DNA of 36,705 nucleotides from a virus (taxonomy: Duplodnaviria; Heunggongvirae; Uroviricota; Caudoviricetes), in IMG/VR virus record IMGVR_UViG_2693429677_000015. One strand, 5' to 3'. Below are positions 12,677 to 31,700 of the stretch, piece after piece. The notes under the pieces are model-generated. The model saw only the letters and a program-made list of their open reading frames with translations. It had not been told where the DNA came from and did no database searches. A program made the position numbers and the translations under genes. How positions within the stretch are numbered: position 1 is the stretch's first letter; each line of letters begins with the position of its first letter.

Positions 12677-13019
12677 CAAGAGATACCGTAAAAGTCAGGG
12701 GTTCAAAAAAATCTTCGGTGTGGGCGCTAATCAGCAGGCGACCAGAAAGCGGGGTTTCTTCTGTCACACTGACCGTGCCGGGTGTGATGCGCTCATCATC
12801 TTCAATCAGCAGTGTCATCTGCATCATGATGTCGGCACGAAGTGTCGGGCTTTTTTCAGCCAGCAGGCGCGTTGCCAGTCCGCTCTCAATGATGGCGTGC
12901 TGGCAGTCCTGGGCAATACTTTCCCTGTTGTTGCATAACACCGGCTCACTGGCGCTGTTCAGCGTGAGATTGCGGCCGGTGATGAGCAAATCAATGTAAA
13001 GCGGTTTATCAGTATGCAT
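12669..13019 (-). CDS. Baseplate wedge protein (P2 gpW-like)
   Basis: ATG at 13019 (MHTDKPLY...) gives 116 aa; start lies 8 nt from the tape-measure stop; the longer track ORF would overlap the tape-measure gene. Confidence 0.6.
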   Translation of the reverse strand: MHTDKPLYIDLLITGRNLTLNSASEPVLCNNRESIAQDCQHAIIESGLATRLLAEKSPTLRADIMMQMTLLIEDDERITPGTVSVTEETPLSGRLLISAHTEDFFEPLTFTVSLDD

Positions 13020-15105
13020 GCAGCTCCATCCACTCGTTAAGACGGGCAGGGGATGGATCCTGCACATTGACGTTAACCACACGACGGGAGTTGTCGATGG
13101 TGGTCTGGTTTTCGCTGTTGTTCTGCATCTCTGCCGCAATGCCGCCCGGTCCCGCACTGATGGCTTTGCCGCCGGTTAATACGGAGCCTTCGCCACTTCC
13201 TGTGCTTTCCGGTGTGTCGATATTGACGCCGGGGATCATGTTGAGCTTGCCTACAATCCAGCCCCATGAATCACTGAAGGACTGTTTCACCAGTTCCCAG
13301 AGGTTACTGAAAATATTCAGGATGCCGCCCGCGAGATCCTTCAGGGCATCCAGTGGTGAATGCGTGGAAAAATAGTTAACCAGTGCATTCCAGCCGTCCT
13401 GGATTGTGTTCCATGCATTGCCGAACCATGCCCCCATACTGCCGACCATTTCAGCCACCCACTGAAAGGCGGCAGTATCCATCAGCGCGACTTTAATCTC
13501 ATCCCAGCGGGTGATCAGGAAATAAATGCCCACGCCCAGCGCAGCCAGTGCCAGGATGATTAATGTGATGGGGCTGAAAAGTAACTGTGTTGCAATTGCA
13601 GCTCCGCTGGTGACTGCGGTGTAGATTTTCATTGCTATGCCGGCGGCACCCAGCGCAACAGAATAAAGCCAGAGTCCGGCGCGCTGTAATTTCAGCAGCG
13701 CCAGCTGAATTTTTGCTTTGACGTTGTATGTTCCCATAGCAATGGACATGGCCAGATACAACGCCCTGACCGTTCGGGCAACTACAGTGAATGCCCACAT
13801 GGTAGCCGTCAGTGTGCGTTTCAGCAGAATGAGAATCTTCAGGGGTGCAACTGCTGCCAGCCAGACCAGCCGCAGTCCTGTCCAGACAAACTTCGCCACA
13901 CCCACCATAATGTTGACAACGGCACCCACTGCGGCAATGCCCAGCAGGGCGGCAGACAGTAAACCAATAGCCCGTGTGATATTGGGATACAGACGTAACC
14001 AGGCAACAAAGGATTTACCGCCTTCGTTGCTTTTCTGGATAAACGGGTACAGAACAGGCAGCAACTGCGTGCCGATTTCGATGCGAATGCCGTTAATAAT
14101 TGCGGCGGCCTGTTCCCATGGATCAGCCATGGCCTGCGCCATTTCGACAGCCTTATCCATACCTTTGATATTGCCCAGCGTGGCGATATTCTTTTCAAGT
14201 CCGCCAATGTCCGCATTGAGTAATTTAATCATGGCCACAGCTTCATCGGAGCCAAAGGCGCTTTTCAGCAAATCGGAATCAGCCACTTTTGACAGATCAC
14301 CAAATTTACCCCTGATAAGTTTCATGATCTCGACAACACTTTTCATCGTGCCGTCTTTATTCACGAAATTAAGCCCCAGCTTTTTCTGGGCGCTGCCTAC
14401 TGCGGCAAGAAATGCCTTGTATTTTGTCCCGGCCTCGCTGCCACTCATGGTGGCCTGTAGTTGTCCCAGCACGGCGAACTGTTCAGCCGCATCAATACCG
14501 GCCGCTTTTGCACTGGCACCCAGCGTGGTGAACGCTGCTGACATGTTATCGCCGGTTGTTTTAAACATTTGCACGGCGGTGGCGGTTTGCCCGGCGACCT
14601 GCTCCACCCATTTGCTTTTTCCCATGGCATCAGCCTGGTCTTTAAAGATGCCGTACATGGTGCCCATGTAGGCGGTAATGGTCTGGCTGCTGGATTTGGT
14701 TGCTGCTGCCACCGTTGCTGATGCGGTGGTGAAGCGCGACAGCTCATCGTCAGTTAACCCGGCAATGGCTGACTGGATGTCGTAAGAAGCACGCACAAAA
14801 TCCTGCGCAGCCCCGCCGTATTCCATAGTGAAATCAACGGCGGCGCGGCTGAGTTTACGCAATCCGGACTCTGCGACGCCCAGTGATTTCACCTCACCGA
14901 GCGCCCTGTCCATTTCAATGGCTGGCATCAGTGCCCCCTGAATGGCTGCACCCACTCCCCAGAGCGCAGCGCCTCCGGTAGCAATGTCCCGAAAGGCTCC
15001 CCGACTTGTTGCAGCAAATCCCTGAACCTGTCGCCCGGCTGCACGCAACGGCCTTGTCAGGCGGTCTGTCAGTTCAAGAAGTAATTCAAGGCGCTGTTGT
15101 GACAT
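13009..15105 (-). CDS. Tail tape measure protein
   Basis: 698 aa, Ala/Gly-rich helical N-terminal half, central hydrophobic segments, position after the tail chaperone; ATG overlaps the stop of the E' extension frame (TAATG). Confidence 0.85.
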   Translation of the reverse strand: MSQQRLELLLELTDRLTRPLRAAGRQVQGFAATSRGAFRDIATGGAALWGVGAAIQGALMPAIEMDRALGEVKSLGVAESGLRKLSRAAVDFTMEYGGAAQDFVRASYDIQSAIAGLTDDELSRFTTASATVAAATKSSSQTITAYMGTMYGIFKDQADAMGKSKWVEQVAGQTATAVQMFKTTGDNMSAAFTTLGASAKAAGIDAAEQFAVLGQLQATMSGSEAGTKYKAFLAAVGSAQKKLGLNFVNKDGTMKSVVEIMKLIRGKFGDLSKVADSDLLKSAFGSDEAVAMIKLLNADIGGLEKNIATLGNIKGMDKAVEMAQAMADPWEQAAAIINGIRIEIGTQLLPVLYPFIQKSNEGGKSFVAWLRLYPNITRAIGLLSAALLGIAAVGAVVNIMVGVAKFVWTGLRLVWLAAVAPLKILILLKRTLTATMWAFTVVARTVRALYLAMSIAMGTYNVKAKIQLALLKLQRAGLWLYSVALGAAGIAMKIYTAVTSGAAIATQLLFSPITLIILALAALGVGIYFLITRWDEIKVALMDTAAFQWVAEMVGSMGAWFGNAWNTIQDGWNALVNYFSTHSPLDALKDLAGGILNIFSNLWELVKQSFSDSWGWIVGKLNMIPGVNIDTPESTGSGEGSVLTGGKAISAGPGGIAAEMQNNSENQTTIDNSRRVVNVNVQDPSPARLNEWMELHAY

Positions 15106-15586
15106 TACGATCCCTTAAAAGCACGGATAATGCCGTTATTGACGGCGATGCTCATATTTTCCCAGTAGTGGTTATCCAGCCAGACGGCGGCAGCCAGTGA
15201 CTGCGGCGAGTCATCCTCGCCGGGCAGCCAGTGGCGGCGCAGGATCAGCATCCGGGTAAGGTCATTGCGATCAATGGCCCCCAGATGGCTTTTTATTTTT
15301 TTACGGTGATTTCCACTTCCGGCACAAACTCGTTATTCACGGCTGTTGCCAGGCTGGCCGGCATTCCTGGTTTTTCCAGCAACTGGTTAAGCAGATCGCG
15401 GTGCTCTTTAATCACGATACGGCGCAGGTAGTTTTTCAGCGGCGCGATTTTGTTATCCGGCATGAAGTCGTTCTGCAGGTCGTTGTAGGCTTTTACGGTC
15501 GGGATAAACGTCAGTTCATGCTCGCCGACCTGTAAAGTGATGGTGTTCTCTGCGGTAGTCTGGGTGTTTTTATCGTTCATCATCAT
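15105..15586 (-). CDS. Tail assembly chaperone E' (E extended by programmed -1 frameshift)
   Basis: -1 slip at A AAA AAA (15302..15296) opens a 63-codon stop-free frame (IKSHLGAIDRNDLTRMLILRRHWLPGEDDSPQSLAAAVWLDNHYWENMSIAVNNGIIRAFKGS) whose TAA overlaps the tape-measure ATG. Confidence 0.5.
15293..15586 (-). CDS. Tail assembly chaperone (P2 gpE-like)
   Basis: 97-aa ORF upstream of tape measure; ends ...GUA AAA AAA UAA with an A-AAA-AAA slippery heptamer. Confidence 0.6.
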   Translation of the reverse strand: MMMNDKNTQTTAENTITLQVGEHELTFIPTVKAYNDLQNDFMPDNKIAPLKNYLRRIVIKEHRDLLNQLLEKPGMPASLATAVNNEFVPEVEITVKK

Positions 15587-15650
15587 TTCCTTTTAAAGTC
15601 AAGAATAAGAGGGCTTAATAAGCCTGCAGGAAGGCTTATTAAGCGTAAAA

Positions 15651-15992
15651 TCAGCGCACGCCGTCGTGCTCAAGGCTGAAATGATTGCCATCCGGGCGTT
15701 TTTTAAAACGACCGCCCCATGCGCCACCAAGAGACTCCCAGTACTCGCCCAGCTCGCGGTAGGCCTCTGTGCGGGTCTGATATTCACCGTTAATAAACAG
15801 GTTAAAATCCACGGCCAGCCGCTGGCAGTGCAGGCTGTTGGCAATGCCGGATCCCTTTTGTGCGTTGAGTTTTGCCTGTTCTGGCGTGCGGTACGCCTCA
15901 CCGAACGTCAGGCCATAACCGCGCTGATGGGCAAACTCGATGAGTTTTCCGATCATGACGGTAAATTGTTGTTGCTTATCGGAGAGTTTCAT
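15651..15992 (-). CDS. Endolysin, peptidase M15 family (zinc D,D- or L-Ala-D-Glu peptidase fold)
   Basis: 113 aa with H-x6-D ... H-x2-H arrangement (HCQRLAVD ... NHFSLEH) typical of small M15 phage peptidases; immediately downstream of the holin-like gene. Confidence 0.65.
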   Translation of the reverse strand: MKLSDKQQQFTVMIGKLIEFAHQRGYGLTFGEAYRTPEQAKLNAQKGSGIANSLHCQRLAVDFNLFINGEYQTRTEAYRELGEYWESLGGAWGGRFKKRPDGNHFSLEHDGVR

Positions 15993-16096
15993 TTTTGCTC
16001 CTTATGAGGTTGCTGAGGTTTGCGCAGCCAGCGCCACAACGCCCGGATAATTTTCCATGCAATGGCGGCAGCTTTTTGTTCCCTGCGGGACAGCAT
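15989..16096 (-). CDS. 35-aa cationic small ORF between holin and endolysin (speculative)
   Basis: MLSRREQKAAAIAWKIIRALWRWLRKPQQPHKEQK; GAGGAG 8 nt upstream; its TGA overlaps the endolysin ATG (ATGA coupling). Confidence 0.2.
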   Translation of the reverse strand: MLSRREQKAAAIAWKIIRALWRWLRKPQQPHKEQK

Positions 16097-16101
16097 TGCT
16101 G

Positions 16102-16398
16102 TTACTCCTCTTTGTTCTCTTTCTCGCCCAGCTTCCGGCGCATATGACGCAGGAAGATTTCCACAACCTGGTAACCGGCAACGCCCATTGCAGTGCCTGC
16201 GCCGGCAATGGCCAGTGGGTCAAGGTTCGGGTAACGAACCAGCAGGGCGGCGGCAGAAACACCCAGCGCGCTCCCCAGCAGGGTTCGACCCACAAACAAC
16301 CGCAACGTAATCGGCTCTGCGCCAGCCAGCACCCGACTTGCGGCAGCGATTCCGCCCAGAATGCCCAGGGTGATAATGGTGCGCTCATGCTCCTGCAT
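16102..16398 (-). CDS. Holin-like small membrane protein
   Basis: 98 aa, two or three predicted TM segments and a charged C-terminus (RRKLGEKENKEE); directly upstream of the endolysin. Confidence 0.55.
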   Translation of the reverse strand: MQEHERTIITLGILGGIAAASRVLAGAEPITLRLFVGRTLLGSALGVSAAALLVRYPNLDPLAIAGAGTAMGVAGYQVVEIFLRHMRRKLGEKENKEE

Positions 16399-16401
16399 GG
16401 T

Positions 16402-16857
16402 TCACCCCATCAGTCCGCGCACGTCGTTCTCTGAGAGAACGGGCACGCCGTTGATACGCACAAAGTCAGGGCTTGCCACCACGTACTTGATTTTGTGCGT
16501 GGTCAGATCTGCGCTCTCGGTGTCAATGCTTAACAGGCCGGAAAGCATCAGCTCGCAACCGAAGGCTTCGACGCGGATTTCTTCAGTGCCCGTGTTGGCG
16601 TAAAACACAAAATCCATTGGCGGCAGATCGCGCCACGATCCCGCCTGAGCAGCTACTTCCCCGAGCTGGTTAAAGCTGCGGGTACTCATTTCGATTTCAC
16701 CTTCGGCACTGACAGGTCCACGCAGTTTACCGTCAGGGATGCCACGGGTTTTGGCAACGGCGCTTTCATCGCTGATGTCCAGTGAGATGCTTTTCACATG
16801 GATATCCGTTCCACCGATAAAGGTGTCAAACGCCATGCCGTTAATGCGGGTCGTCAT
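16402..16857 (-). CDS. Tail tube protein (gpFII-like)
   Basis: 151 aa immediately downstream of, and overlapping, the sheath gene. Confidence 0.65.
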   Translation of the reverse strand: MTTRINGMAFDTFIGGTDIHVKSISLDISDESAVAKTRGIPDGKLRGPVSAEGEIEMSTRSFNQLGEVAAQAGSWRDLPPMDFVFYANTGTEEIRVEAFGCELMLSGLLSIDTESADLTTHKIKYVVASPDFVRINGVPVLSENDVRGLMG

Positions 16858-26527: not shown

Positions 26528-26842
26528 TCACTTCGGGAAAAACGCCTGAATATTCTTTTTCACCTGCTGCATATGGGGGGCGCTGTCTGCTGCTGGTTGC
26601 GCCGGTTTTTCAGGCTGTACTGGTAGCGGTGGCATCCGTATTTCGTCTTCTGACCATTCTGCCAGCGAATACGCCAACGCGGGGGTGCGTTTTATAAGAG
26701 CTAGTCCAGCCAGAAAAGCCGCGCGTTGTGCGCGGCTGCGTTCGGAGGCTGGCAGGCTGTCGAGGTAACTGCACGCCTCCCGTTCGCTCTTGACGACGGC
26801 GGGCTTCAGATAGAAACTTATCCGTCTGGTTGGTGTCGTCAT
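26528..26842 (-). CDS. parR: ParR/StbB-type ribbon-helix-helix centromere-binding protein
   Basis: ATG at 26842 with AGGAG upstream, 5 nt from the parM stop; LDSLPASERSRAQRAAFLAGLAL parallels R1 ParR (LDSIPQGERSRLNRAALTAGLAL) as I recall it. Confidence 0.75.
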   Translation of the reverse strand: MTTPTRRISFYLKPAVVKSEREACSYLDSLPASERSRAQRAAFLAGLALIKRTPALAYSLAEWSEDEIRMPPLPVQPEKPAQPAADSAPHMQQVKKNIQAFFPK

Positions 26843-26846
26843 TGAT

Positions 26847-27806
26847 TTACTCCTTGTCCATTGCGTACAGCCCATTAACCAGAGCAAACTGTGGCACCCC
26901 GTCCGCGATGAAAGTCGCATTAACTCCGCAGGCTTCGCGGATAGCGGGTGCCACAATCTCCGCTCCTCCACCTACAACCATCACCCGCCCGTAACCCGAA
27001 AAAACCGCCAGCGCGCGGATCACGCGTTGTTTCAGTGTTTCCTCCTTTTCACGAATAACTGCCATCAGGCTGGCGTAATGCGCGTCATTGTGGATGTGCT
27101 GGCGCAGCCAGGCTTCATCGTGGCGATGTTCGATAATGGTATTGGCGATGTGGTTACTGGTGCGCATACCGTTGGTGGCCATCACCGACAGCACGGCATC
27201 GGCCATCAGAGAAACGCCTACGTGTGGATCGCAAAACACCTGGCTGATACCTGCCAGTTGCCCCTGAACCTTTGCCACATCCAGCGTGGTTCCGCCCAAA
27301 TCCACAATCAGCAGGGATTCAAACGGACTCATGTCAGCCAGTGCCTTAAAACCAGCCGGAATGGATTCAGGCATAACCCGCACGTTACGGATAGTGAATG
27401 CCTCGCCGTTCTGGTACTCCACCGGGCGCATAACGTTCGCTTTTTTGCGGTTGATGTTGGCCATGTCCGGCTGTGCGTTTGTGTCGAAATACTCGCTCAG
27501 TGGCAGGGTAACAACCACATCCACTACCTGTGGTGTGATGCCTGATTTGACCAGCGCGTGGTGAATGGCGATTACATTCACATCGCTGTACTGGTATTGC
27601 GTGTCGGTCGTCTGGACAAAGCGATCGCTAACCGGATCAAAACCATAGCGCACGCCATCAAGCATGTAGTTCGCGGGCTGCGTGCCACCGAACGGCGCAG
27701 ACCATTCCGACTTGAAGCTGTTCGGGCTGATGGCGTTGCGGCGTTCGCCGTTCTCAGTCCATGCCAGCTTGATGTTGGTGGAGCCGTCGTCGATACAAAT
27801 TTTCAT
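26847..27806 (-). CDS. parM: ParM/StbA actin-like segregation ATPase
   Basis: MKICIDDGSTNIKLAW..., DLGGTTLDV, VVGGGAEIV: actin-fold phosphate and adenosine motifs, with strong similarity to R1 ParM across the length as I recall it. Confidence 0.9.
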   Translation of the reverse strand: MKICIDDGSTNIKLAWTENGERRNAISPNSFKSEWSAPFGGTQPANYMLDGVRYGFDPVSDRFVQTTDTQYQYSDVNVIAIHHALVKSGITPQVVDVVVTLPLSEYFDTNAQPDMANINRKKANVMRPVEYQNGEAFTIRNVRVMPESIPAGFKALADMSPFESLLIVDLGGTTLDVAKVQGQLAGISQVFCDPHVGVSLMADAVLSVMATNGMRTSNHIANTIIEHRHDEAWLRQHIHNDAHYASLMAVIREKEETLKQRVIRALAVFSGYGRVMVVGGGAEIVAPAIREACGVNATFIADGVPQFALVNGLYAMDKE

Positions 27807-31380: not shown

Positions 31381-31700
31381 GGTGTGGCCTCTTTGGTTGT
31401 AAGTTTTGAAAACTCACCATCCAGAGGTTCCAAGCTCGGGGTGGTGAGACGTACAGGGTTGGAACTACCGGCAACCAAAGAACCCGGCCCGACCGAAGTC
31501 GGCCCCATACGCCTCACCATAATTCGTGTGCGAAAAAGACGTGGCGATACGGTACGCACAAAAAAACCGCTGGCGCGGTTGTGCGCTTTGGTTGTCAGCG
31601 GGGTTCCAATCCCGGCACCCGTTTTATGAGGCGCAGCGGAAATGTAACCTGACTGATTGCGGCATGGCAAGCGGTTTTTTTGTGTGTGCATAGTGGTTAC

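Follow-up and report, generated by a model that had tools for sequence, protein, structure and literature searches.

A small cationic peptide gene at the holin-endolysin junction of a spanin-less Escherichia P2/HP1-like prophage is a candidate disruptin-like lysis gene

Approximately 13-15% of the phages of Gram-negative hosts have no recognisable spanin, and the sole demonstrated alternative is gp28 of phage phiKT. This membrane-associated protein of 56 residues, with a net charge of +7 and a predicted amphipathic helix, is encoded between the endolysin and the holin of the spanin-less podovirus phiKT; gp28 complements lambda Rz/Rz1 mutants, and the synthetic gp28 peptide is as active as LL-37 (Holt et al.; 10.1101/515445). 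Here we examine a 36,705-nt stretch of viral DNA (IMG/VR record IMGVR_UViG_2693429677_000015; hereafter "the window", meaning this whole stretch), which carries a P2/HP1-like prophage of Escherichia coli. Its lysis cassette contains a 35-codon open reading frame (ORF), p35, between the holin and endolysin genes and has no recognisable spanin genes. By analogy with gp28, to which it is unrelated in sequence, we judge the chance that p35 encodes a disruptin-like outer-membrane disruptor to be about even. The elements of the cassette on which this reading depends are:

16102-16398, minus strand: holin of 98 aa, of the HP1-type "phage holin family 2" (PF04550 Phage_holin_3_2, E 3.8e-28; PHROG 175 "holin", E 7.5e-33)
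16105-16110, minus strand: GAGGAG Shine-Dalgarno site for p35, within the last two holin codons, with an 8-nt spacer to the ATG
15989-16096, minus strand: p35, 35 codons, MLSRREQKAAAIAWKIIRALWRWLRKPQQPHKEQK; a cationic (+8), Trp/Arg-rich peptide with a predicted amphipathic helix
15651-15992, minus strand: endolysin of 113 aa, an M15 (LAS-type) zinc peptidase (PF13539 Peptidase_M15_4, E 4.2e-11, above the cut-off)

The original prediction, made from the DNA letters, had named a holin-like membrane protein of 98 aa, a 35-aa Trp/Arg/Lys-rich ORF with a GAGGAG site and ATGA coupling to the next gene, and an M15 endolysin. All three are present; the small ORF can be read directly at 15989-16096, and at its end an ATGA joins its TGA stop to the ATG start of the endolysin gene, which is an arrangement for translational coupling.

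Like gp28, the p35 product is small and cationic, has a predicted amphipathic helix, and carries no signal, transmembrane domain (TMD) or lipobox. Both are encoded at the holin-endolysin junction of a spanin-less phage, and the holins belong to the same family, as the window holin family is homologous to the phiKT holin gp29 with E-values of 3e-11 to 8e-16 (3e-11 for the window holin). On the other hand, the two peptides differ in length (56 residues in gp28 and 35 in p35) and in Trp content (1 and 3, respectively), have no sequence similarity, and are found in opposite gene orders, endolysin-gp28-holin in phiKT and holin-p35-endolysin in the window. phiKT itself is virulent, a podovirus, and its endolysin is unrelated to that of the window. 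The function of gp28 has been shown experimentally, whereas that of p35 is a prediction.

The p35 peptide contains 10 Lys/Arg, 2 Glu and 3 Trp residues, giving a net charge of +8. Its hydrophobic moment over 18 residues is 0.55-0.64 across residues 8-32, and the maximum is reached by only 1.3% of shuffled sequences. Lys15, Arg18, Arg22, Arg25 and Lys26 lie on one side and Ile, Leu and Ala on the opposite side, with Trp at the boundary. AlphaFold2, run without an alignment, predicts a single helix at residues 4-24, with a mean predicted local distance difference test score (pLDDT) of 75 that rises to 87 over residues 11-20; overall, the amphipathic helix would take up about residues 4-24/26. 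The remainder is a polar tail that contains Pro. There is no membrane-spanning segment by hydropathy (maximum 0.85 over 15 residues) and no signal peptide, and a lipobox is impossible because the peptide contains no Cys. These properties fall within those expected of disruptins, namely fewer than 80 aa, a charge of at least +4, a predicted amphipathic helix, and no TMD, signal or lipobox. When charge and hydrophobic moment are computed on the same scales, p35 (+8/0.64) and two counterparts from related prophages described below, p39 (+8/0.57) and p41 (+9/0.51), stand beside gp28 (+7/0.52) and LL-37 (+6/0.78). As a group, helical and Trp/Arg-rich cationic antimicrobial peptides (LL-37, and the lactoferricin type with RRWQWR motifs) resemble p35 in length (37 aa in LL-37), in a charge in the range of +6 to +8, in the single amphipathic helix, and in Trp at the polar/apolar boundary. 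However, they are secreted host-defence peptides that act from outside and are not homologous to p35, which would be made in the cytoplasm of the lysing cell.

Several lines of evidence bear on whether p35 is a gene. The Prokaryotic Genome Annotation Pipeline (PGAP) makes no call for it. Some other pipelines do call it; at 90% identity it forms a cluster of 50 members, spread over hundreds of E. coli contigs and labelled "hypothetical" or "uncharacterised" throughout. Variation was assessed over 36 loci, which represent 13 DNA haplotypes. Read in the frame of p35, the mean pairwise ratio of nonsynonymous to synonymous polymorphism (pN/pS) is 0.21; the two alternative frames give 0.89 and 0.85. 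Comparison of the two main haplotypes shows 9 synonymous changes and 6 nonsynonymous ones, against a neutral expectation of about 1:4 (binomial P = 0.001). The replacements are conservative (R/K/H, I/V, A/V, E/D), with residue 22 toggling between R, Y and H, and the length variants arise from deletions of 3 nt and 9 nt, both of which are in frame. Codons 1-27 are intact in 36/36 loci, and early stops occur only at codon 28 or 34, past the predicted helix. From these patterns p35 looks like a real gene, unannotated in RefSeq, that would be translated in vivo.

A tblastn search of 50,697 phage records with p35 gave no match, and when 1.84 billion representative proteins were searched exhaustively with HMMER, the hits were its own cluster and one 39-residue protein (P0004), nothing else. 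A Pfam match to "WRW" (mitochondrial ATP synthase subunit f) was rejected, as it lies below the cut-off and is driven by the WRW motif. Also rejected were an origin as a duplicated holin tail, for which BLASTP against the holin gave no alignment, and an origin as the remnant of an inserted gene, as p35 has no similarity to a DNA methyltransferase found at the same junction in another prophage (see below).

The lysis cassette lies between the tail tube and tail chaperone genes, as the original prediction had stated, and not after the head genes as in P2. The placement that had been presented as unusual is nevertheless the ordinary layout of the HP1-type clade, known since HP1 itself. In Haemophilus phage HP1 the order is sheath-tube-hol-lys-Rz-like-orf26-orf27, and four genera of the Peduoviridae (Irrigatiovirus, Evevirus, Seongnamvirus and Tresduoquattuorvirus, represented by Salmonella phage SI7, Escherichia phage ESSI2_ev239, Cronobacter phage ESSI-2 and Yersinia phage vB_YenM_324) have the order tube-holin-M15 endolysin-Rz(/Rz1)-chaperone-tape measure. 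A profile scan with the tube protein over one genome per bacterial species yielded 50 loci, and in 45 of them the tube, (holin,) M15 endolysin, Rz, Rz1 and chaperone genes follow one another in this order. The remaining five comprise one truncated contig, three loci (Pseudomonas, Nitratidesulfovibrio) with about 1.4 kb of unrecognised genes at this place, and one E. albertii locus (L007), which is identical to the window and is the only one of the 50 with the holin-p35-endolysin-chaperone arrangement. P2 belongs to the same virus family and has the same overall virion gene set as the window. Its lysis module (Y holin, K endolysin, LysA, and the LysB/LysC spanins) is located after the head genes, and its holin and endolysin families differ from those of the window.

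HP1 and the enterobacterial HP1-like phages share with the window the position of the cassette and the holin family PF04550, and the enterobacterial genera also share the M15 endolysin. Those spanin-bearing phages have a direct overlap between the holin and endolysin genes and carry the spanin pair after the endolysin, whereas the window has p35, a hairpin and no spanins. Two traits of gene content set the window apart, namely the absence of Rz/Rz1 after the endolysin and the presence of a small ORF at the holin-endolysin junction. Of 5426 complete E. coli genomes, 42 carry a cassette of this type (97-100% identity); it also occurs in E. albertii, in 22 IMG/VR contigs and in 6 metagenome contigs.

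Two further sublineages have the same organisation. In the first (L122), the tube, holin, endolysin and chaperone are 92, 81, 94 and 92% identical to those of the window, and a 39-codon ORF overlaps both holin and endolysin; its product, p39 (MKLTDRQQKRAAIAWKILRTLWRWLCKPQKTSKDKNETL), is 64% identical to p35. This sublineage has no spanins and contains the same hairpin. In the second (L087, identical to L094; E. coli, WP_305855007), the tube, holin and endolysin are 84, 73 and 86% identical to those of the window. The same place is occupied by a 41-codon ORF, GTGA-coupled to the holin stop and ATGA-coupled to the endolysin, which encodes p41 (MTGKKASPGILSGMRQFAVKVWQLLRSLQKLRNSMNGKTRP), a peptide with a net charge of +9 and no acidic residue. 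Spanins are again missing and the hairpin is present. The similarity of p41 to p35 and p39 is barely detectable, consisting of a single 11-residue match (E 0.013 in a two-sequence search), and a word-index protein search with p41 found its own cluster only. Across the three sublineages, the trait that is conserved is a small, coupled and strongly cationic peptide of predicted amphipathic character, not a sequence, and it is found only where spanins are missing. That the 35-, 39- and 41-residue peptides constitute a second type of disruptin, which took over from the ancestral Rz/Rz1 in a temperate Escherichia lineage of the Peduoviridae, is a possibility that we rate just short of even.

The holin-endolysin junction also accepts other DNA. 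In E. coli 2013C-3033 (NZ_CP027323; L120 749-1501), a gene for a 251-aa DNA methyltransferase lies exactly between the holin and M15 endolysin genes, and the Rz-like gene is kept; the junction is therefore a recurrent insertion point. This invites a reading in which the p35 peptide has no function, being either a translated spacer that preserves the coupling of the endolysin after an insertion at the junction or a chance ORF, so that the prophage would be spanin-deficient and either dependent on shear or low divalent cations for lysis or decaying. The missing PGAP call, the truncated copies and a constraint weaker than that of the neighbouring genes are in keeping with such a spacer. However, purifying selection on p35 is specific to its frame (0.21 versus 0.85-0.89), the changes are conservative, and codons 1-27 are intact at all of the loci compared. 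Moreover, the 41-aa version keeps its charge and amphipathicity despite barely detectable similarity, which would be needless for a mere spacer, and the other phage genes are intact and constrained. We regard a functionless p35 as distinctly unlikely.

The absence of an Rz/Rz1-like pair, which the original prediction had also reported, was borne out by several searches. The spanins of SI7, ev239, ESSI-2 and YenM324 and the lysis protein of Proteus phage Brookers found nothing in the 36.7-kb window by tblastn. A strict lipobox scan from every start codon in the six frames of the window was likewise empty, and a relaxed scan returned only out-of-frame artefacts, so that no credible embedded spanin ORF came to light. 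The one hit of the relaxed scan inside the cassette was a 30-codon ORF at 15599-15691 on the minus strand (MAIISALSTTAC; MAIISALSTTACADFTLNKPSCRLIKPSYS), which runs from the 3' end of the endolysin through the hairpin and has a lipobox-like T-T-A-C; it was judged a chance ORF because it has no Shine-Dalgarno site, no basic n-region, a non-canonical T-T-A-C box, no inner-membrane spanin (i-spanin) partner and no homologue. The gap between endolysin and chaperone is only 64 bp long and holds the hairpin. A canonical lysis module elsewhere in the prophage was sought by PHROG scans of 19 further prophage ORFs, in which no "lysis" family appeared. Since HP1 and all of the sampled genera have spanins, their absence from the window is a derived loss. 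A related, A+T-rich prophage of E. coli LZSFT34 (NZ_CP132728; L119 1224-1901) has the order tube-holin-M15 endolysin-chaperone, with 49 bp before the chaperone.

It is conceivable that the outer membrane is opened by an atypical spanin that has escaped recognition, by the Rz/Rz1 of another prophage, or by a host factor, and that p35 is an unrelated moron encoding a toxin or anti-competitor peptide. Several prophage ORFs are of unassigned function and the cargo is variable, including a Hok/Gef toxin, and lambdoid prophages with spanins are usually present in E. coli strains. However, the spanins of repressed resident prophages are not expressed in the late phase of another phage. The window contains no lipobox ORF with a signal-peptide-like N-terminus and nothing similar to the Rz/Rz1 of its relatives, and its unassigned ORFs lie in early and baseplate modules that are common to spanin-bearing relatives. 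A moron would also leave the tight translational coupling within the lysis cassette unexplained, and we consider this explanation very unlikely.

The holin has three hydrophobic segments by hydropathy (about residues 7-26, 31-54 and 60-82) and a charged C-terminal tail, RHMRRKLGEKENKEE. It is under strong purifying selection (pN/pS = 0.03 over 19 haplotypes), as is the endolysin (pN/pS = 0.08). The endolysin is 75-81% identical to those of SI7, ev239, ESSI-2 and YenM324. Its motifs H55-x6-D62 and D101-G-N-H104 align to the same motifs in 8q2g, a solved L-alanyl-D-glutamate endopeptidase, and are invariant in the sequences of relatives; by homology, these motifs would supply the zinc ligands. 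With no hydrophobic N-terminus (maximum hydropathy 0.7), the endolysin is predicted to be cytoplasmic, with neither a signal nor a signal-anchor-release (SAR) domain.

The position of p35, directly after the holin gene and coupled to the endolysin, would also suit an inner-membrane modulator of the holin, whether as an antiholin, as a factor that sets triggering or timing, or as an accessory for endolysin release, in which case there would be no dedicated outer-membrane step. Small accessory lysis proteins that act at the level of the holin do exist, such as the 65-residue Lcc6 of LambdaSo, and the LZSFT34 type of prophage, with neither spanins nor a small ORF, suggests that spanin loss without replacement is possible. 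Unlike Lcc6 and the membrane antiholins, though, p35 lacks a segment that could span a membrane. In 3/3 sublineages the ORF was gained where the spanins were lost, and none of the spanin-bearing relatives examined has it. Furthermore, charge and amphipathicity are conserved over sequence, as would be expected for a peptide that binds lipid or lipopolysaccharide (LPS) more than for one with a specific protein partner. A role as a holin modulator is, on this evidence, unlikely.

If p35 is instead a disruptin-like outer-membrane disruptor, lysis may proceed as follows. Late transcription through the sheath and tube genes would extend over holin, p35 and endolysin. Holin molecules would build up in the inner membrane and then trigger, upon which the cytoplasmic M15 peptidase could exit through the holin lesions and cleave the peptide stems of the peptidoglycan. 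p35, made in the cytoplasm alongside the other lysis proteins, would reach the outer membrane either together with the endolysin through the holin lesions or earlier, by its own membrane activity; the earlier route has been argued for in the case of gp28. There it would bind LPS through its Arg/Lys face, displace divalent cations and insert its Trp/Ile/Leu face. The weakened outer membrane would rupture after degradation of the wall, replacing the membrane fusion mediated by spanins. We infer translation of p35 in vivo, its localisation, and its disruption of the outer membrane. The strong purifying selection on holin and endolysin, together with the occurrence of the prophage at no fewer than two chromosomal sites, argues that the lineage still lyses cells.

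Several observations weigh against a disruptin-like role. p35 is cut at codon 34 in 4 of the sampled loci and at codon 28 in 1, its constraint is looser than that of the holin and endolysin (0.21 versus 0.03-0.08), and the sites that segregate in it fall on the three codon positions in near-equal numbers (8/8/10). The diversity of the window-type ORF is shallow, with 13 haplotypes from Escherichia only. In the LZSFT34 type, found in two E. coli genomes, the spanins and the small ORF are both missing, and spanin loss can therefore occur without a visible replacement. The inner membrane or the holin would be an equally plausible target for a cationic amphipathic peptide made in the cytoplasm. 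Finally, BLASTP of p35 against gp28 gave no alignment; this does not exclude p35 from the disruptins, because that class is defined by function.

The region between endolysin and chaperone, where the relatives have Rz/Rz1, contains two further elements:

15613-15644, minus strand: stem-loop with a 13-bp stem and a 6-nt loop, then CCUCUUAUUCUU
15597-15602, minus strand: TTGACT hexamer, ending 10 nt before the chaperone ATG at 15586; L087 has CTGACA there

The hairpin had been described with a 12-bp stem at about 15613-15645, and apart from the slight revision of its extent and stem it is as described. It is the top terminator-like site of the region, and the surrounding 86 nt fold with -24.9 kcal/mol (z = -3.2 versus shuffles). 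A six-sequence alignment shows the structure kept in the window lineage, L087 and L122: pairing holds in 96% of cells, and at 4 pairs both sides have changed, for example from U-A to G-C and from A-U to U-A in L087. Values of this size arise in only 2 of 500 shuffles, which is supportive but not conclusive because the sample is small (6) and the sequences are related. The stem is A+U-rich, with G-C at 5 of its 13 pairs, and the tail CCUCUUAUUCUU is an interrupted U-tract. Because of these features, and because essential tail genes lie downstream, the hairpin is read as a leaky terminator or a 3'-stabilising element; most likely, it is a leaky or weak intrinsic terminator or an mRNA stabiliser that closes the abundantly needed sheath-tube-lysis part of the transcript. 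In the spanin-bearing relatives there is no intergenic space at this place, because Rz1 overlaps the start of the chaperone gene. As for the TTGACT, the hexamer proposed as a -35-like element is indeed present, but it does not provide a usable chaperone promoter. A promoter scan reported no promoter-like site at TTGACT, and the hexamer cannot be the -35 of the chaperone gene because a sigma-70 start would then fall about 20 nt inside the ORF.

The cassette is flanked by genes of the tail operon, of which the tube gene is the upstream neighbour and the chaperone gene the downstream one:

16402-16857, minus strand: tail tube, 151 aa (PF10772 Phage_HP1_Orf24, E 1.1e-50; PHROG 1182 tail protein)
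15293-15586, minus strand: tail assembly chaperone, 97 aa (PF10963 Phage_TAC_10, E 1.6e-26)
15105-15251, minus strand: DUF6890 ORF (PF21830), a continuation of the tail operon
13009-15105, minus strand: tape measure gene (PF10145, PHROG 28), a continuation of the tail operon

The 3' end of the chaperone ORF (15293-15332, minus strand) reads GTA AAA AAA TAA, with a run of seven A at 15296-15302, and the DUF6890 frame is open upstream to 15332 and so overlaps the chaperone 3' end. By analogy with the P2 E/E+E' system, this looks like a -1 programmed frameshift that would fuse the chaperone to DUF6890 just before the tape measure gene.

The window as a whole is a segment of the E. coli chromosome, with 99-100% identity to several complete genomes (e.g., NZ_CP087377). 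The P2/HP1-like prophage reaches from its integrase, at 35.7 kb, to an end at ~2.6 kb that carries Hok/Gef and cargo and adjoins flk. On an identical locus, PGAP annotates integrase, Cox, replication endonuclease, Ogr, portal, terminases, scaffold, capsid and head completion, as well as tail completion, sheath, tube, holin, M15 peptidase, chaperone, tape measure, baseplate and fibres. This gene set is complete, and the prophage is an intact-looking member of the Peduoviridae (P2/HP1-like). The cargo at the prophage end (1264-2811, minus strand) is annotated as T6SS (type VI secretion system)-associated TagO, a "type VI secretion protein", a zinc-ribbon protein and the Hok/Gef toxin. In another strain, 700481, the same prophage adjoins raiA, not flk, and carries different cargo, with a Com-regulated DNA methyltransferase in place of the TagO/T6SS/Hok genes of the window, as well as an IS66 insertion. 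As the same prophage thus occurs at at least two chromosomal sites with different cargo, the element has moved. The IS66-family element of the 700481 copy (L001 24645-27233) lies between the major capsid and scaffold genes, and the annotated scaffold coding sequence is shortened; this copy has probably been inactivated, whereas the copy in the window looks intact.

Two other regions of the prophage contain elements of interest. ParM and a "plasmid partitioning/stability family" gene are encoded at 26528-27806 (minus strand), within the integrated P2-like prophage, which hints at plasmid-prophage ancestry or an alternative lifestyle. In the early region, adjoining a truncated ash-family/hypothetical gene, Rfam matches above the gathering score identify a C4 antisense RNA (84 bits; 31437-31524, minus strand) and the Hfq-binding RNA isrK (67 bits; 31560-31634, minus strand).

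A paper of January 2026 treats gp28 as the archetype of disruptins and names as an open question whether spanin-less phages generally encode them (PMC12819732). p35 is a well-supported candidate for a new member of this class that would be unrelated in sequence to the first. The placement of its cassette is not new; the gene itself is missed by standard annotation. The comparative contrast around p35 is clean, with dozens of close relatives that have spanins and no small ORF and one lineage that has the small ORF and no spanins, and both the character of the peptide and the location of its gene are as one would expect of a disruptin. It also supplies a search template, namely a cassette with spanin-bearing relatives in which a small cationic ORF, translationally coupled, occupies the holin-endolysin junction. 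If the disruptin reading is true, no disruptin would have been described before p35 in a prophage or temperate myovirus, its takeover from the spanins would be the first natural replacement of this kind to be documented, and about 1% of complete E. coli genomes would encode an unannotated Trp/Arg-rich, membrane-active peptide of the size of LL-37.

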